Source of the DNA: Escherichia coli
GTDB taxonomy: Bacteria > Pseudomonadota > Gammaproteobacteria > Enterobacterales > Enterobacteriaceae
Strand: one strand, 5' to 3'
Length of the DNA stretch: 64,000 nt
NCBI RefSeq assembly: GCF_016903815.1
Contig: NZ_CP069973.1
In this document: one piece after another, positions 31,364 to 41,445 of the stretch
Position numbering within the stretch: position 1 is the stretch's first letter
Layout: every line of letters begins with the position of its first letter
Position numbers and translations under genes: made by a program
Notes under the pieces: generated by a model
Database searches by the model: none
Seen by the model: the letters and a program-made list of their open reading frames with translations, nothing else
What the model was told of the DNA's origin: nothing

Positions 31364-31717
31364 ATGTCATTTCTGTTACCCATCCAACTGTTCAAAATTC
31401 TTGCTGATGAAACCCGTCTGGGCATCGTTTTACTGCTCAGCGAGCTGGGAGAATTATGCGTCTGCGATCTCTGTACTGCCCTCGATCAGTCGCAGCCCAA
31501 GATATCCCGCCACCTGGCATTGCTGCGTGAAAGTGGGCTATTGCTGGATCGCAAGCAGGGTAAGTGGGTTCATTACCGCTTATCACCGCATATTCCATCA
31601 TGGGCCGCGAAAATTATTGAGCAGGCCTGGCGATGCGAACAGGAAAAGGTTCAGGTGATTGTCCGCAACCTGGCTCGACAAAATTGTTCCGAAGACAGTA
31701 AGAACATTTGTAGTTAA
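31364..31717 (+). CDS. arsR: Arsenical resistance operon repressor ArsR
   Basis: 117 aa; metal-binding ELCVCDLC motif in the HTH region. Confidence 0.95.
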   Translation: MSFLLPIQLFKILADETRLGIVLLLSELGELCVCDLCTALDQSQPKISRHLALLRESGLLLDRKQGKWVHYRLSPHIPSWAAKIIEQAWRCEQEKVQVIVRNLARQNCSEDSKNICS

Positions 31718-31771
31718 AAAATTTATCTAAACACATATGGATTTGCACATGTGTTTTTTCCGGGAGGCATT

Positions 31772-33061
31772 ATGTTACTGGCAGGCGCTATCTTTGTCCT
31801 GACCATCGTATTGGTTATCTGGCAGCCGAAAGGTTTAGGCATCGGCTGGAGTGCAACACTCGGCGCAGTACTGGCGTTAGTTACGGGCGTGGTACATCCG
31901 GGTGATATTCCGGTGGTGTGGAATATCGTCTGGAACGCGACGGCTGCGTTTATTGCCGTTATTATCATCAGCCTGCTGCTGGATGAGTCCGGCTTTTTTG
32001 AATGGGCAGCGCTGCACGTCTCACGCTGGGGCAATGGACGCGGTCGCTTGCTGTTTACCTGGATTGTCCTGCTCGGTGCTGCCGTTGCAGCTCTGTTTGC
32101 CAATGATGGCGCGGCGCTTATTTTGACACCGATTGTCATCGCCATGCTGCTGGCTTTAGGGTTCAGTAAAGGCACGACGCTTGCGTTCGTGATGGCGGCC
32201 GGGTTCATTGCCGATACCGCCAGCCTGCCGCTTATTGTCTCCAACCTGGTGAATATCGTTTCCGCAGATTTCTTTGGCCTCGGCTTTCGCGAATATGCCT
32301 CGGTGATGGTGCCGGTGGATATCGCCGCGATTGTTGCCACGCTGGTGATGTTGCATCTCTATTTCCGCAAAGATATTCCGCAGAACTACGACATGGCGCT
32401 GCTGAAATCTCCCGCAGAAGCGATTAAAGATCCTGCTACGTTCAAAACTGGCTGGGTTGTTTTACTGCTTCTGCTGGTGGGATTTTTCGTTCTGGAACCG
32501 CTCGGCATTCCGGTCAGCGCCATTGCGGCAGTGGGCGCGCTGATATTATTTGCCGTCGCTAAACGCGGTCATGCAATTAATACGGGTAAGGTGCTACGCG
32601 GTGCGCCCTGGCAGATTGTCATCTTCTCGCTCGGCATGTATCTGGTGGTTTATGGCCTGCGCAATGCCGGACTAACGGAATATCTTTCTGGCGTACTCAA
32701 CGTGCTGGCGGAAAACGGCCTGTGGGCCGCGACGCTCGGCACCGGATTCCTCACCGCCTTCCTCTCTTCTATTATGAACAATATGCCGACGGTACTGGTT
32801 GGCGCGTTGTCCATTGATGGCAGCACGGCATCTGGCGTTATCAAAGAAGCGATGGTTTATGCCAACGTGATTGGCTGCGATTTGGGGCCGAAAATTACCC
32901 CAATTGGTAGCCTGGCTACGCTACTCTGGCTGCACGTTCTTTCGCAGAAGAATATGACTATCAGCTGGGGATATTACTTCCGTACAGGGATTATCATGAC
33001 CCTGCCGGTGCTTTTTGTGACGCTGGCTGCGCTGGCGCTACGTCTCTCTTTCACTTTGTAA
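31772..33061 (+). CDS. arsB: Arsenite/antimonite efflux pump ArsB
   Basis: 429 aa from [10 protein letters not shown] after GGGAGG RBS. Confidence 0.95.
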
Positions 33062-33073
33062 TGAGATATTGAT

Positions 33074-33499
33074 ATGAGCAACATTACCATTTATCACAAC
33101 CCGGCCTGCGGTACGTCGCGTAATACGCTGGAGATGATCCGCAACAGCGGTACAGAACCGACCATCGTCTATTATCTGGAAACCCCACCGACGCGTGATG
33201 AACTGGTCAAACTCATTGCCGATATGGGGATTTCCGTACGCGCGCTGCTGCGTAAAAACGTCGAGCCGTATGAGGAACTGGGCCTTGCAGAAGATAAATT
33301 TACTGACGATCGGTTAATCGACTTTATGCTTCAGCACCCGATTCTGATTAATCGCCCGATTGTGGTGACGCCGCTGGGAACTCGCCTGTGTCGCCCTTCA
33401 GAAGTGGTGCTGGAAATTCTGCCAGATGCGCAACAAGGCGCGTTCACCAAGGAAGATGGCGAGAAAGTGGTTGATGAAGCGGGTAAACGCTTGAAATAA
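33074..33499 (+). CDS. arsC: Arsenate reductase (glutaredoxin-coupled) ArsC
   Basis: 141 aa; MSNITIYHNPACGTSRNTL contains the catalytic Cys. Confidence 0.95.
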   Translation: MSNITIYHNPACGTSRNTLEMIRNSGTEPTIVYYLETPPTRDELVKLIADMGISVRALLRKNVEPYEELGLAEDKFTDDRLIDFMLQHPILINRPIVVTPLGTRLCRPSEVVLEILPDAQQGAFTKEDGEKVVDEAGKRLK

Positions 33500-33529
33500 A
33501 GCGGCGATATCCACTGCCCATAGTTGGTA

Positions 33530-33640
33530 AAGTGCGCTTTGTTTATGTCGGATGCGACGCTAACGCGTCTTATCCGACCTACAAAACCGTGCATGGCATG
33601 AAATCTGTAGCGCGTAGCGCATCAGGCAATTTTGCTATTT
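33530..33640. repeat. REP (repetitive extragenic palindromic) elements
   Basis: gtcggatgcgacgctaacgcgtcttatccgacctaca and gcgtagcgcatcaggca resemble enterobacterial REP units. Confidence 0.55.
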
Positions 33641-33918
33641 ACGCAGCACTCCTCGCGTAAGAATTCAATTATCGCTTCCAGCATTGCGTATTGCGAAACA
33701 CACATCAGCGTTCGACTCTCACGGTTTTGTTTGACCAGCCCTACCGATACCAGTGCTGAAATATGGTGACTGAGTGTAGAGCCGGGTATCCCAAGCTGCT
33801 TTTGCAACTCACCGACCGGCAAACCTTGTTCCCCCGCTTTGACCAGGTGTTTGAATATGAACAAACGGGTCGGGTGACCTAGCTCTTTCAGCGCTTTAGC
33901 AACTTCTTCCAACTGCAT
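33622..33918 (-). CDS. Second ArsR/SmtB-family metalloregulator with C-terminal Cys cluster
   Basis: 98 aa; winged-HTH segment GELQKQLGIPGSTLSHHISALVSVGLV; cysteines at ...LMCVSQ... and ...REECC near the C-terminus. Confidence 0.8.
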   Translation of the reverse strand: MQLEEVAKALKELGHPTRLFIFKHLVKAGEQGLPVGELQKQLGIPGSTLSHHISALVSVGLVKQNRESRTLMCVSQYAMLEAIIEFLREECCVNSKIA

Positions 33919-34025
33919 ATGACACCCCCTTTGTCTGGTTGATATTTCGATAATACCAGAAATATCTTGATCTGAATTTCATTTCGATTATTCTGGAAAT
34001 ATAGATTTATTCAATGAGGTTACGT

Positions 34026-35027
34026 ATGAGTAGTTGGCTTGCGATGCTGCAAGATGCCGCAGAGATGTTTGTGTTTCTCGCCGTTGAGCTTTCTTTGCTG
34101 TTTATAGTGATTAGTGCCGGTGTGAGCCTGATAAGACAAAAGGTGCCAGACCATAAAATCCAGCAGATGATGGGGGCCAGAAAAGGGAGAGGTTATCTCC
34201 TGGCTGCTCTGTTGGGAGCCGTTACCCCGTTCTGTAGTTGCTCGACAATACCCATGTTACGTGGATTGTTGTCAGCGAAAGCCGGGTTTGGTCCAACCCT
34301 TACTTTTTTATTTGTTTCACCGCTACTTAATCCCATTATCGTCGGACTAATGTGGGTGACCTTTGGCTGGAAAGTGACCTTGTTGTACGCGATTATCGCC
34401 GCCGGCGTCTCCGTACTTGCCAGTATTATCCTGGATTCTCTGGGATTTGAACGTCATATTATTGCCAGTAAAAGCTCATCAGCAAATTGTTGTGCTCCAG
34501 CCAAAACTTCGCCGGGGACGACATATACGCCAATAAAAGTGAGTTGCTGTAGTCCAGCGGCTAAAGCCATTGAGAAACCTGTAGTAAACTGTTGCAGTAC
34601 CAAAGCTGTGGTAAGTATTAATCCCATAAAACTAGCCACCAAAGATGCGTTGCAACAGTTTAAAGATGTACTGCCATATCTTTTGTTAGGGGTATTAATA
34701 GGCTCTTTTATTTATGGCTTTATTCCCTCAGAGTGGATTGCCGCTCATGCAGGGGCAGATAATCCCTTCGCCATCCCATTGAGCGCCGTTGTCGGTATTC
34801 CGCTATATATCCGGGCAGAGGCGGTTATCCCTCTGGCATCTGTTCTGATGACAAAAGGAATGGCTCTGGGAGCATTAATGGCATTAATCATCGGCAGTGC
34901 CGGCGCAAGCCTGACGGAAGTGATATTACTTAAATCAATGTTCAGAATACCGATGATAGTTGCATTCCTGACGGTTATATTAGGTATGGCTATCTTGATG
35001 GGCTATTTGACTCAAATGCTATTTTAA
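34026..35027 (+). CDS. arsP: ArsP-like (DUF318-type) permease, candidate organoarsenical efflux permease
   Basis: GAGG RBS 6 nt before ATG 34026. Contains the TPFCSCS motif (AVTPFCSCSTIPM) and a Cys-rich central loop; divergent from the ArsR-family gene. Confidence 0.65.
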   Translation: MSSWLAMLQDAAEMFVFLAVELSLLFIVISAGVSLIRQKVPDHKIQQMMGARKGRGYLLAALLGAVTPFCSCSTIPMLRGLLSAKAGFGPTLTFLFVSPLLNPIIVGLMWVTFGWKVTLLYAIIAAGVSVLASIILDSLGFERHIIASKSSSANCCAPAKTSPGTTYTPIKVSCCSPAAKAIEKPVVNCCSTKAVVSINPIKLATKDALQQFKDVLPYLLLGVLIGSFIYGFIPSEWIAAHAGADNPFAIPLSAVVGIPLYIRAEAVIPLASVLMTKGMALGALMALIIGSAGASLTEVILLKSMFRIPMIVAFLTVILGMAILMGYLTQMLF

Positions 35028-35607
35028 ATAGATGCCAGCAGTAAACTATAAGGAGCATTGTGAGTGCCTTATCCTTCTGAGTAGAAAATCATAGATAGGA
35101 TAATCTTTAAAAATCACAAATAACTTAACTAATGCTTTGAGAATGATGACGGATCCGTCAGTAAGTCATCAATCGACAATCACCACGCAATCATGCTTCT
35201 CTGACATTTTATCGGAGAAGCAATGTCTCTTTGTTTCAGTGCTATCCCCCCTTTTAAAGGGCAGATTTCAGTCGCCAATACAACACATTTTTAAATACAC
35301 TTTAACCTGGTTCATTATTACACATCTAAAACATCACAAAAATATCACTTCACACACTATCGGTGAACATCATAACTTTTTAAAATGAGCGCTTTTTGAT
35401 AGTTGTTAACGTTTTCCTTTACGATACTATCACTGCCCTTTTTTTATACACAAATATTACCGGGTGGAGATAAAAGGGAAATCAAAGGTAATTATATCAG
35501 GAAGAGATAACGCATTACATTTATTGTGTGTAGAAGAAAATCCATTCCTGTTCTAATTATCCAATTTAAACATCTTAGCATAAAACAAATGATGAATAAG
35601 GAATTTT

Positions 35608-36831
35608 ATGTCAATTGACTTTACCCCAGGTATAATAAATACATATCACGGCGATATTTATAACTGCACAACAAATACCGATAATGCTAAAACGCCAGAC
35701 ACACCGAAGTGGCCTTGCGATAATTTGGAAGAACAACAACCCATTAATTCCACATTCTCTGGAGAAGGATATACCTCTGATCAATATGATTTAGCGCAAC
35801 ACCAACTTCAACAAATTAATGCGTGCCACACGAACACTACATATACAAATGCAGAATACTCAAAAGTTGTGACTCAACTTGTAAGTCTTATTACTAACAT
35901 TGAAACGATAAGTTCGACACCACTTACGCAACAGACACAATCAATACTTAATCAGATTAATAACATTAGATACGAAAAAAACAAAAGTGCTGAATGTCGA
36001 ATCATTGTTGTCGCTAATCCTAAACCCGACAAGGCAATCATAACTAAAATTAGCGTAGAAGAGGGAATACCAGTAAGATTCAGTGTCCAAACCATGTTTT
36101 CAGATACTAATTTTATTGCTGAACAACGAGCTGACTTACCGACTAATATAAAAGATATTCAAAACCTGTATCAAAAAATGACGAAGTTATATATTGAGCA
36201 CAGTGAAAATAAAAACAGGATGAAAGTCTTTGCCGGAACCAACTTTATTGATTTCAATATGACAGGACAGAACCTGTCCGGGTTCGTTCTAACCTTGTCA
36301 AGGTTTTATTTCGAAGATCTACTTAATATAAATTTCACTGACGCAAATTTAGGTGACACTATTTTTTCACATAAAGAACACCCTGCCCCAAAATTATATA
36401 AAGACGAACAATATCTTGACAAACAAATCGAAGGTTTATTTTCAACATTATTAACCATTAATGACAACTTTTTACGAGCAAAAGCGGAAATTGCTTCGAC
36501 AATAATTAAATTCTTAGAGGCCAGGATAACCAATATTTCATACAATGACATATTAAAATATCAGCAAGAATTCAAAAAACAATGTTATAAGCAAGTTAAA
36601 GCCTTTACGACACTCTCCCGATACAATAAAATTCAAACATGGGCAGAAATGTCTGAATATCAATTCGAAGTATTTCAACGCGAGACGCTTAACCCAAAAA
36701 AAATGTCATGCGCACCTTATTTAAAGAGATCGCTACCTGATGAAAAAACTATAAATTATGGGGTGGAAATAGAAACACCAACTGGCAAAAGAATTCGCTT
36801 ATCAAATCATTACCAGAATATAATCCCATAA
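35608..36831 (+). CDS. yhiS: YhiS, uncharacterised protein (intact 407-aa form)
   Basis: AT-rich ORF in the arsC-to-slp position. Confidence 0.7.
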
Positions 36832-38385: not shown

Positions 38386-39414
38386 TTATGCAGTAACGCC
38401 TTCCGGTATCAGCGAAGCAATTTGCTTACGCCATTGCGCTTGCTCCTGTTCGCCTTCTGTACGTTGACCATAAAGTTGCGCTATCTGCGTACCATCATGG
38501 GCAAACAATTCCAGACTGGTCACATAACCGTCACTAGCAGGTTTACGGGTTACCCAGGTTTCAGCAATGCTCTCTTCTAATAGATGAAGAGTAAACGTCG
38601 GGTTAAAAATATTCAGCCAACCTTTCATTGGCACCACTTTTTCTACCACGCCAGTGAAAATCTGTACGCAGCCACGGTTGCCAACAAACACCATGATTTC
38701 ATTGCCATCCTGCTGTGCAGATTCAAGAATTTGCGCCAACGCACTGTTGGATACTTTGCAGGCCAAATCGTCTGCCACCAGATTGAACGCCTGTTGGCGC
38801 GTCAGGTTGTGGCGCTTGAGCAACGTAAAAAACTGATGAACGTCGGTCATCGCCCGCCACTCTTGCTCGACCACACTGGCATCGGCTCGCATTTGAACGA
38901 CTGGCGCATCAACGGCTTTTAACTCAAGCGGCGTATTCTCATCAGTGATAAACCGTGCCAGAAGCTCACTCCATGCCGCCATATCGGTATTGTCGGTGGC
39001 ATAAACTTTTAGTAATGCATCGCCCTGATGATCAAAGAACTGAATACTCTGGCGTTCGCCACGAGTCGTATTTTCTTTAATGTGAAAAACACTGGCCCAT
39101 TGATTGAGAAACAGACGCAAATCCAGCGCGCGTGGATTGAGGATCAATCCGGCATGTCCGTTCAAATGCTGGTTTGTGAACGCACCAACTTGCTCATGGA
39201 CTGCATATTCATTACGGCAAATACATTTGGTCTCGCCAACACTTTCGAGCGCCGCCAGAATTTCACGGATATCGCCGCGCATCCGCCACGCATCGTGCGT
39301 GACGCGTGCAAATGCCAGTTCTGCTTCGCTAATATTCATTAAACCTGCGATGTCACGCGCGTACTTTCCGGGATTTTGTTCTTTTAACTCAAGCCAGCGT
39401 GTGTAGTGGTTCAT
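38386..39414 (-). CDS. chuS: Haem utilisation / haem-degrading protein ChuS (HemS/ShuS family)
   Basis: 342-aa ORF directly downstream of chuA on the same strand. Confidence 0.9.
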   Translation of the reverse strand: MNHYTRWLELKEQNPGKYARDIAGLMNISEAELAFARVTHDAWRMRGDIREILAALESVGETKCICRNEYAVHEQVGAFTNQHLNGHAGLILNPRALDLRLFLNQWASVFHIKENTTRGERQSIQFFDHQGDALLKVYATDNTDMAAWSELLARFITDENTPLELKAVDAPVVQMRADASVVEQEWRAMTDVHQFFTLLKRHNLTRQQAFNLVADDLACKVSNSALAQILESAQQDGNEIMVFVGNRGCVQIFTGVVEKVVPMKGWLNIFNPTFTLHLLEESIAETWVTRKPASDGYVTSLELFAHDGTQIAQLYGQRTEGEQEQAQWRKQIASLIPEGVTA

Positions 39415-39462
39415 TGTCTCTCTTCCTTCCAGATAAATGCCCCGAAATATCGGGGCAGATGA

Positions 39463-41445
39463 TTACCATTGATAACTCACGAAAATTTTTCCATTACGAC
39501 CATCCTGTGGGATGCCTTGTGGCGACCAGTACTCTTTGTCGAAAGCGTTACCCAACACCAAAGTAGTGGTCATACCTTTGAGCGCCTGTTGTCCTTGATA
39601 ACTGACGTAGAAATCATTCACGCCATAGCCTGGTTGTTTGCTGTAACTGCTGCTGATATGTGTTGAGCGATCGGCAAACGTACCAACCCACCCAACAGAG
39701 AAGCCACTGTGAGCGATCGGAATATTCAGGGTACTGGTAACGGTATCCGGGTTAATGCTGGAGATATATTCCCCAGTATCGGTGTCTTTGCCGCGGGTAC
39801 GGTTATAGGCCACATCAAGGCTAAACAGATCAGTGGTATATTTCGTCATTACATCCCAGCCCCAGATTTTGGCGTTCGGGACGTTATACGACATAGTTGT
39901 CGCCGCCGCGAAATCGACGGTCGTGGAGATGTAATCCTTCGCTTTGGTATCAAAGTAGCTGGCTTTAAATTCCAGGGTATCATTGGACAACATCAGGTCA
40001 TCAAAACGCAGCCCAAAACCGTACTCCTGAGTTTCGTTAGTTTCCGGACGTAAGTTCGGGTTTGGCACCCAATAGTTGGTATAGAAGCGACCAATCGAGA
40101 AGTGCTTAGAATCGTTATACATTTCGCCCATCGTCGGGGCGCGGAATGCCTGGGCATATGAGCCAAATAACATCAGCCAGTTAGTCGGATTGATAGTCAT
40201 CCCCGCACGAGATGACCATTTGTCGGCATCAACATCTTTGTAACCGTCACTGCTACCGCGATAACTGTCATAGCGGGTTCCGCCAAGCAGGGTAATCGGC
40301 AGATCGCGTAAGGTGATCTCATCCTGTAGCCAGCCGGAGCTAAAATCGATTTTTGCTTGCGGGAAGCCCGTCGTCGCGCCGCCCGGATGTTGTTCCTGAC
40401 GATAATACTCACCGCCATATGTCAGTAAGTGAGAAGCGAAACTGTCGGCAAAGAGAGTGGAACGGTTCTCCAGCCTGGCTCCTTTTGTTATCTGTTCACG
40501 ATACTCGCCGGAACTCCCCGTGTTTTGCGCATTAATACGGACTTCCGACCAGTAAATTTTTGCATCTGCATTTAACCAGTCGTTGCCCTGCGGGGCGAGT
40601 TTATAAGAAAGCTGCGCATCGCGTTGAATTGTTGAACGATCAACCATCGGGTTGCTGCTATCAGAAGCCTCAACAGTCTGCGGATTTTTTGGTTCACGCG
40701 CGTCGTTGTTGTAGTAACGCACTAAACCGCTCAGAGACTGGGCTGAATCAATTTGCCAGGTCCCTTTCGCCAGCATGTTATTAATGGACTCGTCATTCGG
40801 CGCGGTTTCACCATTGCTCTGGCGTAAATCACCCCGACCGCGACTGGACCAGGCCACAATACCATCCAGATTTTCAGTTCGCCCAAACGCGCTCGCGCCT
40901 AATCCCAGGCTATGGTCCCCCGTGCCGCCAGTACCAAAGACACGAAAACCACTGCTTTGTCCTTCCTGCAATAAATCTTTTGCATCGACCGTATCGTAGG
41001 AGATCACTCCACCCAGCGCACCACTGCCATACAGTAATGCTGAAGGTCCGCGAACAATCTCAACACGCTTGATCAGCGCCGGATCGAGAAAAGTGCCATT
41101 CAGGTGTCCGGTATCCGTTCCCTGGCGAACACCATCGACAAGAACCAGCACGCCGCGATGATCATAGCCACGCATATTTACATCCTGACCGTTGGTTCGT
41201 CCGGTACCATCAAGAGTAATTCCAGGAACATGACGCAGCAAATCAGTGGCTGAAGTAGCCGTTTGATTTTCAGGAGCGGAAGTGTCGATGACGCTGACCA
41301 TCATAGGCGCTTCGAAGGAACTACGGGCATTCCCCGTTGCCGTAACGGTCATGGTTTCAGTAGCAAAAGCAAACGTTGGCAAGGTGGCAGAAACAGCCAA
41401 AGCCAACAAACTCAAACGCAACGAGGTAAATTGCGGACGTGACAT
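39463..41445 (-). CDS. chuA: TonB-dependent outer membrane haem/haemoglobin receptor ChuA
   Basis: 660 aa; signal peptide, TonB-box-like ETMTVTA, plug and beta-barrel, C-terminal ...VSYQW. Confidence 0.95.
   Translation of the reverse strand: MSRPQFTSLRLSLLALAVSATLPTFAFATETMTVTATGNARSSFEAPMMVSVIDTSAPENQTATSATDLLRHVPGITLDGTGRTNGQDVNMRGYDHRGVLVLVDGVRQGTDTGHLNGTFLDPALIKRVEIVRGPSALLYGSGALGGVISYDTVDAKDLLQEGQSSGFRVFGTGGTGDHSLGLGASAFGRTENLDGIVAWSSRGRGDLRQSNGETAPNDESINNMLAKGTWQIDSAQSLSGLVRYYNNDAREPKNPQTVEASDSSNPMVDRSTIQRDAQLSYKLAPQGNDWLNADAKIYWSEVRINAQNTGSSGEYREQITKGARLENRSTLFADSFASHLLTYGGEYYRQEQHPGGATTGFPQAKIDFSSGWLQDEITLRDLPITLLGGTRYDSYRGSSDGYKDVDADKWSSRAGMTINPTNWLMLFGSYAQAFRAPTMGEMYNDSKHFSIGRFYTNYWVPNPNLRPETNETQEYGFGLRFDDLMLSNDTLEFKASYFDTKAKDYISTTVDFAAATTMSYNVPNAKIWGWDVMTKYTTDLFSLDVAYNRTRGKDTDTGEYISSINPDTVTSTLNIPIAHSGFSVGWVGTFADRSTHISSSYSKQPGYGVNDFYVSYQGQQALKGMTTTLVLGNAFDKEYWSPQGIPQDGRNGKIFVSYQW

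Follow-up and report, generated by a model that had tools for sequence, protein, structure and literature searches.

An SpArsR-like regulator and an ArsP-family permease beside the Escherichia coli arsRBC operon: a probable sensor and efflux module for trivalent organoarsenicals

The locus and its divergent promoter region

The window considered here, by which we mean the whole 64,000-nucleotide stretch of Escherichia coli DNA that was analysed, matches E. coli strain 7/2 (NZ_CP023820) at 100% identity. The gene order around its ars locus is gor – dinQ – arsR – arsB – arsC, followed by the two genes of interest and then by a gene for a hypothetical protein of 407 aa, slp and dctR (Table 1). 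The preliminary description of this DNA had placed a divergent ArsR/SmtB regulator and ArsP-family permease directly after arsC, and this is indeed what the locus contains, both open reading frames having Pfam matches. The regulator ORF (33622-33918, minus strand) encodes 98 aa; it is convergent with the arsRBC operon and divergent from the permease gene. The longest permease ORF (34014-35027, plus strand) would encode 337 aa, and RefSeq starts the gene at the ATG at 34026, giving a protein of 333 aa. This ATG is the likelier start, because a GAGG Shine-Dalgarno sequence lies 5 nt ahead of it and RefSeq annotates it. The RefSeq labels for the two products are nothing more specific than “permease” and “ArsR/SmtB family transcription factor”, and a literature search on four RefSeq accessions (those of the pair and of its plasmid version) found no mention of them.

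Table 1. Features of the ars locus in the window, in order of position (strand given as. where none applies).
Feature	Position	Strand	Basis or remark
Canonical arsR-arsB-arsC operon	31364..33499	+	Directly upstream of the pair; RefSeq annotation of identical record
arsR	31364-31717	+	NCBIfam PRK10141, 231 bits
arsB	31772-33061	+	RefSeq annotation of identical record
arsC	33074-33499	+	RefSeq annotation of identical record
REP-type repeat	33529..33585	.	Between arsC stop and regulator stop; many matches per genome
SpArsR-type ArsR/SmtB repressor gene	33622..33918	-	HTH_20, NF033788, identity to SpArsR
Regulator Cys92	33643-33645	-	Invariant in 50 diverse homologues
Regulator Cys91	33646-33648	-	Invariant in 50 diverse homologues
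Segment absent from E. coli of the K-12 and O157 types, ~1.6 kb	33692..35298	.	blastn
Regulator Cys73	33700-33702	-	Invariant in 50 diverse homologues
Operator site 1, GATATTTCGATAATACCAGAAATATC	33941..33966	.	Perfect 8-10-8 palindrome; predicted
Operator site 2, CATTTCGATTATTCTGGAAATAT	33980..34002	.	Direct-repeat family plus inverted repeats; predicted
ArsP-family permease gene (PF03773, TC 2.A.119), 333 aa	34026..35027	+	RefSeq CDS WP_001521528
TPFCSCS motif, residues 67-73, predicted TM2	34224..34244	+	Cys-x-Cys conserved family-wide
Central hydrophilic loop TM4-TM5, residues ~136-211	34431..34658	+	Hydropathy, alignment

The intergenic region contains two predicted operator sites. Site 1 adjoins the putative permease -35 element, TTGATC (33963-33968), and over most of its length (33946-33966) 21 of 21 positions agree with part of the validated arsP promoter of S. 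putrefaciens. Between E. coli and Aeromonas the site does not change, in contrast to its flanks. Among the best 80 loci, which come from 80 mostly marine species, the core TTTC-N10-GAAA is found upstream of the permease in 68, and its density there is 4.75 per kb vs 0.043 per kb elsewhere, an enrichment of ~110-fold. Site 2, conserved in the intergenic alignment, shares positions with the putative -10 element of each divergent promoter; these elements were assigned from promoter-like hexamers. To judge from their sequences, the divergent arrangement and the operators match the validated Shewanella arsP promoter. The operators, the Shine-Dalgarno sequences and the catalytic cysteines are all conserved from E. 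coli to Aeromonas.

The regulator and its cysteines

The regulator matches the Pfam families HTH_20 (2.4e-14) and HTH_5 (1.3e-6) as well as the NCBIfam model NF033788 (61.9 bits, cut-off 55). Its AF2 model (pLDDT 95) has the order alpha1-alpha2-alpha3-alphaR-beta1-beta2-alpha5, which is that of the ArsR/SmtB winged helix-turn-helix, and a fold search of the PDB gave 74 matches at E <= 1e-3, with all 50 of those listed being ArsR/SmtB-family or ArsR-like regulators. It shares 27% identity with the canonical ArsR encoded in the same window. The C-terminal cysteine cluster that had been pointed out earlier (CVSQ...REECC) is present: the protein carries the motifs ...LMCVSQ...REECCVNSKIA, with C73, C91 and C92 as its only cysteines, and after the vicinal pair there are just six residues (VNSKIA), none of them cysteine, before the stop. 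In the AF2 model Cys73 is in the wing strand beta2 just before alpha5, and the Cys91-Cys92 pair caps the opposite end of that helix.

The preliminary description likened this cluster to those of As(III)-binding regulators, a comparison that did not survive closer inspection. The best PDB neighbour of the regulator by both sequence (E 5e-10) and fold (Foldseek TM 0.88) is AfArsR of Acidithiobacillus ferrooxidans (PDB 6J05), at an identity of only ~30%. The AfArsR residues Cys95 and Cys96, at the end of alpha5, align exactly with the vicinal pair of the regulator, but the type-2 As(III) site of AfArsR also includes Cys102, which has no equivalent here, and AfArsR has a Tyr where the regulator has its invariant wing Cys73. 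Regulators selective for the toxic organic arsenical methylarsenite, MAs(III), show just this pattern, with equivalents of Cys95/Cys96 but none of Cys102 (PMC13236881, PMC11868830). The absence of this third cysteine rules out an AfArsR-type (type 2) As(III) site. An ArArsR-type site (Cys41/Cys80/Cys82; PMC11868830) is ruled out too, the regulator having neither an N-terminal cysteine nor a C-x-C in the wing. The persulfide sensors BigR, YgaV and SqrR appear among the PDB and NCBIfam matches, but their scores are far under the cut-offs (38.5 vs 155 bits). The BigR/SqrR sensors use a cysteine of helix alpha2, and this residue has no counterpart among the C73, C91 and C92 of the regulator.

We have also compared the regulator with SpArsR (Sput200_1227) of Shewanella putrefaciens 200, the sequence of which was rebuilt from the supplement of PMC12124457. 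The two align over 92 aa without gaps, with 58% identity and 75% positives (E 3e-41), and C73/C91/C92 fall on C83/C101/C102 of SpArsR. They belong to the same length class, they have the same three cysteines and neither has a cysteine after the pair; as judged by this alignment, the E. coli protein is the orthologue of SpArsR. SpArsR has been characterised experimentally as a repressor that acts on the arsP promoter and is selective for MAs(III) (Chen, Nadar and Rosen 2017, as cited in PMC11868830 and PMC13236881), with C101/C102 as the MAs(III) ligands and no response to As(III) because there is no third cysteine (PMC13236881, PMC11868830). A biosensor built from SpArsR and the arsP promoter gave 73% of its maximum at 1 uM MMAs(III) vs 9% at 50 uM As(III), and derepression by MAs(III) rather than As(III) is known for SpArsR and NdArsR only (PMC12124457).

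The likeness between the E. coli pair and SpArsR-arsP (Sput200_1227 / Sput200_1226) extends to the ATATTTC-N10-GAAATAT operators, which occur in both E. coli and Shewanella. There are also differences. The Shewanella intergenic region is ~220 bp long and that of E. coli only 107 bp; the E. coli pair abuts the canonical arsRBC, whereas the orthologous locus of S. xiamenensis stands alone; and the loop of the E. coli permease has three CC pairs. The S. xiamenensis orthologue of SpArsR is 88% identical to SpArsR itself, and the permease paired with it is 49% identical to that of the window. At 58% identity between the regulators, the effector selectivity of the E. coli protein may perhaps have drifted.

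The permease and its family

An HMM comparison bears out the placement of the permease in the ArsP family: the match to ArsP_1 (PF03773; 2.8e-52) is full-length, residues 13-334 covering model positions 3-293 of 294. PF03773 is the Pfam of the ArsP family (TC 2.A.119), which was founded on C. jejuni ArsP (PMC7176098). Hydropathy analysis gives four hydrophobic segments on either side of a 76-residue loop, and such a 4+4 TMS topology with a variable central loop is the pattern of the ArsP family (PMC7176098, PMC2963123). The loop is Cys-rich, as had been noticed, with vicinal CC pairs at 155/156, 174/175 and 189/190. Both its length and its cysteine content are hypervariable between homologues, the count of CC pairs going from 0 to 7 in relatives, and a Kyte-Doolittle profile together with the positive-inside count is ambiguous on which side of the membrane the loop faces.

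The preliminary description also cited the TPFCSCS motif, taking it as a mark of methylarsenite efflux. The motif is certainly there, and P68-F-C70-S-C72-S73 is invariant in the permease alignment, but its diagnostic value has to be abandoned. It is found in nearly all PF03773 representatives, down to ~30% identity, and the CSC core is common to the SO_0444 Cu/Zn exporters and to SaoE (10.1101/2022.07.06.499078); a motif that is so generic to the family is uninformative on the substrate.

Direct transport data for MAs(III)/Rox(III) efflux come from C. jejuni ArsP only (TC 2.A.119.1.1; Chen et al. 2015, as cited in PMC6205960). The window permease resembles it in its Pfam/TCDB family (PF03773; PMC7176098), in its location in an ars operon and in the conserved cysteine pair that transport requires, the equivalent in the family motif being C70/C72. 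However, arsP is the first gene of arsP-arsR-arsC-acr3 in C. jejuni, where it is induced by As(III)/As(V) via a conventional ArsR (PMC3598800), whereas the window permease has its own divergent SpArsR-type regulator. The clusters of ten 50%-identity representatives contained no Campylobacter members, and a search of the PDB for sequence relatives gave none, even at E <= 1.

SO_0444 of Shewanella and SaoE share with the permease the PF03773 superfamily, the CSC motif and a variable central loop. Membership of either group is ruled out by the curated cut-offs: the permease scores 109.2 bits against the SO_0444 model NF033936 (cut-off 300) and 87.6 bits against the SaoE model NF040736 (cut-off 325). 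All of the relatives tested against the former gave 84-126 bits, so that none of them is an SO_0444 equivalog. Moreover, SO_0444 has MerR-type ZntR regulation and a Zn/Cu phenotype (PMC3219624), and the regulator that adjoins our permease is ArsR-type. SaoE is always found with Sao ABC importer genes (10.1101/2022.07.06.499078), and the neighbourhood in the window has no Sao genes.

Distribution, history and proposed function

With respect to other bacteria, in about 90% of the species loci surveyed (again the best 80) the pair has no arsenic gene within 9 kb. Elsewhere the linkage to arsenic genes takes several forms. The pair comes after a prophage arsRDABC in Citrobacter and likewise after the ars operon in Salmonella (arsRDABC-arsH), where arsH follows the regulator; in IncHI2 and pESI-like plasmids arsH-sigZ-arsD-arsA comes after the regulator and is read from the same strand; the order in Endozoicomonas is arsR-acr3-arsD-arsA-permease-regulator; arsH-sigZ adjoins the pair in Pseudoalteromonas; and Halomonas has a copy in a gapdh-arsJ/aioAB/arsC/arsH island. 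Since ArsH is an MAs(III) oxidase (PMC6205960), its repeated adjacency suggests organoarsenicals rather than arsenite. Hundreds of enterobacterial plasmids carry the module at ~75-80% amino-acid identity, among them Salmonella Infantis pESI-like and IncHI2 plasmids from chicken and turkey meat. The IncHI2 and pESI-like multidrug plasmids are associated with both poultry and swine. In some lineages the pair is commonly accompanied by an ECF238 (CorE-like, SigZ-like) sigma factor, which has an E-C-C C-terminal motif of its own.

Within E. coli, 2221 of the 5426 complete genomes carry the pair and ~59% are without it. As the preliminary description had it for K-12, the pair is absent from K-12 derivatives, and the same is true of O157:H7. 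The missing ~1.6 kb takes in most of the regulator gene, the operators and the entire permease gene. When the window is compared by blastn with the pair-less strain 10R, positions 33400-33691 align at 82% and 35299-35700 at 96%, and nothing aligns between them; the coverage classes are 61% and 58%. Pair-less E. coli keep ~70 nt of the 3' end of the regulator gene at ~82% identity, and, this remnant aside, the REP-type repeat is the sole high-identity K-12 match in the interval (query 33500-35140). E. fergusonii has the pair at the same site after arsRBC. The remnant and the E. fergusonii copy indicate that the K-12 state results from a deletion and not from a gain in the present strain. On these alignments the pair is thus ancestral at the ars locus, and to call it “appended” to arsRBC, as was done initially, reverses the history.

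What, then, does the pair do? Our preferred reading, to which we give a probability of roughly two in three, is that it makes up an independent, self-regulating unit for the detoxification of trivalent organoarsenicals: MAs(III) and probably also aromatic compounds like reduced roxarsone. The orthology to SpArsR, the operator match and the recurrent ars/arsH linkage support the earlier proposal that the pair extends the ars locus to organoarsenicals, and it is probably a trivalent-organoarsenical sensor and efflux module that has been unannotated until now. A ligand-free regulator dimer would bind both of the ATATTTC-N10-GAAATAT palindromes that lie in the 107 bp between the divergent genes and, once bound, would repress both its own gene and that of the permease. 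MAs(III) has just two free coordination positions. The vicinal Cys91-Cys92, which caps helix alpha5 at its C-terminal end, could capture it and would thereby distort this dimerisation helix and release the DNA. Inorganic arsenite would be left to the neighbouring canonical ArsR/ArsB, because the regulator is without the third cysteine used by AfArsR. The derepressed permease, presumably a 4+4-TMS transporter of the ArsP family with an essential Cys-x-Cys in TM2, would then extrude the organoarsenical with the proton-motive force as its energy. We infer that the E. coli proteins keep the specificities of their relatives (the MAs(III) selectivity of SpArsR and the MAs(III)/Rox(III) efflux of C. 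jejuni ArsP), and likewise that the invariant Cys73 and the Cys-rich loop have roles.

If the organoarsenical reading is true, some two-fifths of the complete E. coli genomes possess a dedicated trivalent-organoarsenical sensor and pump, and the finding bears on how arsenical feed additives may co-select multidrug plasmids. It also bears on the idea that methylarsenite serves as an antibiotic within microbial communities, the gut included, where ArsP and ArsH activity is yet to be evaluated (PMC6953987). K-12 serves as the reference strain in arsenic biology and is usually the host for arsenical biosensors and ArsP assays, and it lacks the pair because of the deletion. An MAs(III)-type sensor native to E. 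coli, together with its operator, may be usable for biosensor design. A more ambitious reading, which we offer tentatively and hold to be a good deal less probable, is that Cys73, the vicinal cysteines of the permease loop and the SigZ/ECF238 sigma factor form an undescribed multi-layer metalloid-sensing circuit, and that the module is an unannotated methylarsenite/roxarsone resistance determinant in ~40% of E. coli and on IncHI2/pESI-like plasmids. Were this so, arsenical feed additives, and possibly methylarsenite from gut anaerobes, would be tied to the co-selection of antibiotic-resistance plasmids.

Alternatively, the pair could be a back-up for inorganic As(III)/Sb(III), in which As(III) is three-coordinated by Cys91-Cys92 and the Cys73 of the other subunit and the permease exports arsenite, possibly energised by ArsA where arsDA adjoins. 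We think this unlikely, although Cys73, invariant as it is in 50 diverse homologues, could in principle provide a third ligand across the dimer interface. Such an intersubunit site is geometrically conceivable in the AF2 model, which puts Cys73 and the vicinal pair at opposite ends of alpha5, given the alpha5-site architecture of ArsR/SmtB proteins with their antiparallel alpha5 helices. Some Vibrio and Shewanella homologues even have an extra cysteine 4-5 residues after the pair, as in AfArsR. In Endozoicomonas arsD-arsA lies immediately ahead of the permease, on plasmids it comes downstream of the regulator, and an ArsA-ArsP coupling and co-evolution has been proposed by Castillo and Saier (PMC2963123). 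Against this, SpArsR, with the same three cysteines, is barely responsive to As(III) in the biosensor cited above (PMC12124457), C. jejuni ArsP does not transport As(III) according to the account given in PMC6205960, and at every locus where the pair is linked to ars genes, arsenite is already served by ArsB or Acr3.

Slightly less likely still, in our estimation, is an efflux system for soft metals (Cu/Zn/Cd/Hg) like SO_0444 and Shew_3410, with the ars adjacency explained by hitch-hiking in enterobacterial metal-resistance islands. The nearest curated NCBIfam model of the permease is that of the SO_0444 Cu/Zn efflux family, though the score is far under its cut-off, like those of the relatives, and mutants of SO_0444 and Shew_3410 are sensitive to Zn/Cu (PMC3219624; 10.1101/072470). 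Most homologous loci are without ars genes, Cys-rich loops also bind Cd, Hg and Cu, and the characterised members of ECF238, to which the associated SigZ-like factor belongs, respond to Cu or Cd/Zn (PMC7826278). However, SO_0444 is under a MerR-type ZntR and not an ArsR (PMC3219624), the orthologue of our regulator has a measured effector, MAs(III), and neighbour clustering revealed no mer, czc, znt or cop genes recurring beside the pair. A paralogous pair with 48.5% identity does occur beside silE on IncF plasmids, but an ISL3 element sets it apart from sil and its N-terminus is nearly identical to that of the Halomonas arsenic-island copy.

Finally, it is highly improbable that the pair has lost its function in E. 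coli and is decaying towards the loss seen in K-12: it has been deleted in ~59% of the complete genomes and the central loop varies in length between permease alleles of 322 to 358 aa, but in every sampled genome that carries the pair the two ORFs are unbroken and are annotated as such, the conservation of operators, Shine-Dalgarno sequences and catalytic cysteines reaches as far as Aeromonas, and the module is carried by hundreds of enterobacterial plasmids.

The regulator and the divergent promoter

The two open reading frames that the preliminary description placed directly after arsC were both recovered, as a protein of 98 residues on the minus strand and one of 337 on the plus strand, and the motifs it quoted (Cys73, Cys91 and Cys92 of the regulator; TPFCSCS and the three vicinal Cys pairs of the permease loop) are all present. 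Given the GAGG upstream of it, we use 34026 as the probable permease start. E. coli strain 7/2 (NZ_CP023820) is 100% identical to the window, and its RefSeq gene order is gor, dinQ, arsR, arsB, arsC, regulator, permease, a 407-aa hypothetical, slp, dctR.

Coordinates of the features discussed (window positions; loci with an L prefix have their own numbering)
Feature	Position	Strand	Remarks
Regulator ORF, 98 aa	33622-33918	minus	RefSeq 'ArsR/SmtB family transcription factor', WP_001175589
Permease ORF, longest form, 337 aa	34014-35027	plus	
Permease, RefSeq form, 333 aa	start 34026	plus	'permease', WP_001521528; GAGG 5 bases 5' of start
TPFCSCS motif	permease residues 67-73		
Cys-rich central loop, 76 residues	34431-34658	plus	three vicinal Cys pairs
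Putative operator 1	33941-33966		GATATTTC-N10-GAAATATC, perfect 8-10-8 palindrome
Putative operator 2	33980-34002		CATTTC-N10-GAAATAT palindrome
Regulator remnant, K-12 type	33622-33691		against L097:1040-1113
407-aa hypothetical ORF	35608-36831		yhiS position
chuS-chuA	~38386-41140		by offset; L001:10887-13641, chuA cut at locus end
SigZ-family sigma genes	L011:5208-5753, L012:5207-5752, L009:1357-1899, L088:7790-8404, L092:15688-16287		in Vibrio, e.g. L041:7886-8485
Second PF03773 subfamily	L009:1-1159, L017:7924-8982, L020:2168-3193, L092:14586-15593		
Paralogous pair, E. coli E69	L015:8599-9999		
Remoter paralogous pair	L013:2709-4169		IncF plasmid NZ_OK236218
Halomonas sp. ALS9 copy	L092:8488-10023		arsenic island

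The regulator matches Pfam HTH_20 (2.4e-14) and passes the NCBIfam ArsR/SmtB model (61.9 bits, cut-off 55). In its AlphaFold model (pLDDT 95) the elements follow the canonical ArsR/SmtB order, with Cys73 within wing strand beta2 and the Cys pair directly after helix alpha5. The top PDB sequence match is AfArsR, the As(III) repressor of Acidithiobacillus ferrooxidans (6J05, E 5e-10), which also ranks first in Foldseek (TM 0.88, E 9e-9); the next protein trails it by some three orders of magnitude. The alignment places the regulator's E-E-C-C on E-N-C95-C96 of AfArsR. However, the As(III) ligands of AfArsR are Cys95, Cys96 and Cys102, and the regulator, whose chain ends six residues past the Cys pair, has no Cys102 equivalent. 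The C-terminal cysteine cluster of the preliminary description is real, but the likeness that it drew to As(III)-binding regulators fails, since this third Cys is missing.

SpArsR, the methylarsenite (MAs(III))-selective arsP repressor of Shewanella putrefaciens 200, forms a two-coordinate MAs(III) site from Cys101/Cys102 and is unresponsive to As(III) (PMC13236881, PMC11868830); the regulator shares this Cys pair, again without a third downstream Cys. In a biosensor built on SpArsR and the arsP promoter, 1 uM MMAs(III) restored 73% of the unrepressed signal and 50 uM As(III) 9% (PMC12124457). We have taken the SpArsR sequence from the synthetic gene printed in the supplement of that paper together with a 222-bp stretch of the S. 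putrefaciens arsP promoter. The gene text is short of two bases and its reading frames were stitched into a protein of 105 aa, whose cysteines (83, 101 and 102) agree with the published numbering. Against this rebuilt SpArsR the regulator is 58% identical over 92 residues with zero gaps (BLASTP, E 3e-41), C73/C91/C92 pairing with C83/C101/C102, as compared with only 27% identity to the window's canonical ArsR. By sequence, then, the regulator is an orthologue of SpArsR, a characterised methylarsenite sensor. All three cysteines are invariant across 50 diverse homologues, ars-linked loci included. Moreover, the printed sequence of NdArsR, a second published MAs(III)-selective repressor (Nd-ars-gBlock, PMC12124457 supplement), reads ...RCR...RCC..., a wing Cys plus C-terminal CC pattern common to SpArsR and our regulator, though it is only ~35% identical. 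Rather than being a bystander, the invariant wing Cys may contribute to the MAs(III)-selective design. Alternatively, the pair could be an As(III)/Sb(III) system in which Cys73 supplies a third, intersubunit ligand, but against this possibility stands SpArsR, which ignores As(III) although it carries the equivalent Cys.

The 107-bp divergent region consists of two tandem 37-nt units with one palindrome each, and both palindromes flank or overlap promoter-like hexamers of both genes. When the promoter regions of E. coli, E. fergusonii, a second E. coli locus, three plasmid/island copies, Citrobacter and two Aeromonas were aligned, the two palindromes were essentially invariant and the flanks divergent. 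We have also scanned one genome per species, calling ORFs and clustering neighbours at the closest 80 loci (47-74% identity, mostly marine Gammaproteobacteria). In 68 of these 80 the 260 bp preceding the permease contain TTTC-N10-GAAA, usually as two sites ~50 bp apart, and its density there is 4.75 per kb, versus 0.043 per kb in the remainder of the loci. The experimentally used S. putrefaciens arsP promoter carries TTCGATAATACCAGAAATATC, identical at 21/21 positions to window 33946-33966, and a second site, ATATTTCCATAATTCCAGAAAT.

The permease and the proposed mechanism

The preliminary description considered the permease ArsP-like, and an HMM search bears this out with a full-length match to PF03773/ArsP_1 (Pfam 2.8e-52). 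In Pfam, PF03773 represents the ArsP family (TC 2.A.119), of which C. jejuni ArsP is the founder (PMC7176098); according to a summary within PMC6205960, the latter exports MAs(III) and trivalent roxarsone, not As(III). In the hydropathy profile four hydrophobic segments stand on either side of a hydrophilic loop (4+4), a layout that fits descriptions of the family (PMC7176098, PMC2963123). The TPFCSCS motif, although present as claimed, is not diagnostic, being found in nearly all PF03773 representatives, down to ~30% identity. The central loop is hypervariable among homologues in length and in CC-pair number (0 to 7), and charge counts on it give ambiguous sidedness; it behaves like a low-complexity insert in rapid evolution. 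Even between alleles from E. coli and from plasmids its length is polymorphic (322- to 377-aa proteins; homologues P0001-P0058), with CC-containing units gained or lost.

The CSC core is the most conserved motif between the SO_0444 Cu/Zn exporters and SaoE, two other PF03773-type families (10.1101/2022.07.06.499078). A soft-metal exporter like SO_0444 is nevertheless a weakened alternative: the permease scores of 109 bits for SO_0444 and 88 bits for SaoE lie well under the respective cut-offs (300 and 325), so that it belongs to neither family, the regulator class differs, and recurrent metal genes are absent nearby. The same holds for the scores of eight relatives. At a Shewanella xiamenensis locus (L057) the regulator is 88% identical to SpArsR, which makes this locus orthologous to Sput200_1226/1227; the permease encoded there shares 49% identity with that of the window.

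The best-supported mechanism, and the one we prefer, combines a SpArsR-type repressor with ArsP-type organoarsenical export. A SpArsR-type dimer on the two palindromes would repress both divergent promoters; MAs(III), bound by Cys91-Cys92 at the alpha5 end, would release the repressor; and the ArsP-type permease would export the trivalent organoarsenical, inorganic arsenite being left to the adjacent ArsR/ArsB/ArsC. Effector and substrate are here transferred from the orthologues, and we infer the roles of Cys73 and of the permease loop. The pair is a previously unannotated SpArsR-arsP member, not a new kind of system; the present data show its gene structure, its orthology and synteny, and the conservation of its operators. 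Its protein accessions gave no hit in the body of literature that was searched; a review states that ArsP and ArsH activities in gut bacteria are yet to be evaluated (PMC6953987).

History in E. coli and contexts elsewhere

Among 5426 complete E. coli genomes, 2221 contain the pair and the sequence on either side of it. The others, K-12 derivatives and O157:H7 among them, give two alignment pieces covering 58-61% of the 4.1-kb query. In a pair-less strain the arsC-proximal piece extends to 33691, taking in the final ~70 bp of the regulator gene (82% identity), and alignment restarts at 35299; the K-12-type remnant after arsC corresponds to the degraded last ~23 codons of the regulator. This remnant and the synteny of E. 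fergusonii (gor-dinQ-arsRBC-[pair]-treF) show that the pair is ancestral here and that what K-12 has is the scar of a deletion; the derived state is thus that of the reference strain. K-12 does lack the pair, as the preliminary description stated, but nothing was appended: K-12 has lost it. This corrects a K-12-centred view of the E. coli ars locus. An ArsP homologue of E. coli had already been listed, in an ars/arsA context, by Castillo and Saier in 2010 (PMC2963123). That the pair is itself a decaying remnant is contradicted by its intact genes and conserved signals.

Further along, the 407-aa ORF has zero NCBIfam matches and is intact in the window, whereas sampled K-12 derivatives have IS5 in the same interval. 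The haem-uptake genes chuS-chuA directly follow dctR, and the acid-fitness-island layout is therefore unlike that of K-12; this order marks a non-A/B1 phylogroup background.

Elsewhere the pair follows a prophage-borne arsRDABC in Citrobacter and lies on a mobile island in Salmonella (arsRDABC-arsH-[pair]). IncHI2 and pESI-like plasmids have the order regulator-arsH-sigZ-like sigma-arsD-arsA on a single strand, with the permease divergent from it. By tblastn the permease occurs on 1001 plasmids, the best match having 60-90% identity in 635; sampled enterobacterial plasmid copies are ~75-80% identical. Widespread multidrug plasmids from food animals are thereby flagged as carriers of a probable organoarsenical determinant.

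Among the 80 closest species loci the regulator is the only consistently conserved neighbour (61-62 loci, median distance 128 bp, divergent in 53), followed by a SigZ-family ECF sigma factor (14-15). Arsenic genes lie within 9 kb in ~8, in independent lineages and with differing partners: arsR-acr3-arsD-arsA-permease-regulator in Endozoicomonas; arsH-sigZ adjoining the pair in Pseudoalteromonas luteoviolacea; gapdh-arsJ, aioAB, arsC, arsH and acr3 on a Halomonas island; acr3 at +8.5 kb in a Marinobacterium MAG; and, at two loci, ArsR with two tandem PF03773 genes, one of these loci also with CcdA and thioredoxin-like genes. In ~90% of the 80 the pair stands alone; the module is accordingly autonomous in the main, with repeated recruitment into ars clusters. 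ArsH is an MAs(III) oxidase (PMC6205960). Its recurrence beside the module fits an organoarsenical role. It also agrees with the SpArsR paper, in which SpArsR orthologues reportedly control both arsP and arsH.

Accompanying genes and paralogous pairs

The SigZ-family sigma factor (~180-205 aa) that accompanies the module is placed between arsH and arsD on the IncHI2/pESI-like plasmids. Its C-terminal Cys motif is conserved, as ECC...C..C in Vibrio and ...VCC in the copies from plasmids and Halomonas. The factor belongs to ECF238 (CorE-like), a group in which metals activate the protein via a Cys-rich tail (PMC7826278); a metalloid-responsive ECF sigma, if true, would be new.

Members of a second, distant PF03773 subfamily (25-31% identity to the window permease) turn up repeatedly in ars contexts, sometimes in tandem with a window-type permease. 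A small thioredoxin-like 'redox-active disulfide protein 2' often follows them, in agreement with the ars-associated redox genes noted earlier (PMC2963123).

Some E. coli chromosomes (E69) carry a second, paralogous regulator/permease pair elsewhere, its permease 74% identical, with an ABC/HlyD-type transporter cluster on one side and a 1965-aa protein on the other; ars genes are absent nearby and the same two operators are present. A remoter pair (48.5% identical) lies by silE on IncF plasmids, an ISL3 transposase separating it from sil. The N-terminus of its permease is almost identical to that of the copy in the Halomonas sp. ALS9 arsenic island (gapdh-arsJ, aioAB, arsC, arsH), which suggests that the IncF pair may derive from a Halomonas-type arsenic-island copy.
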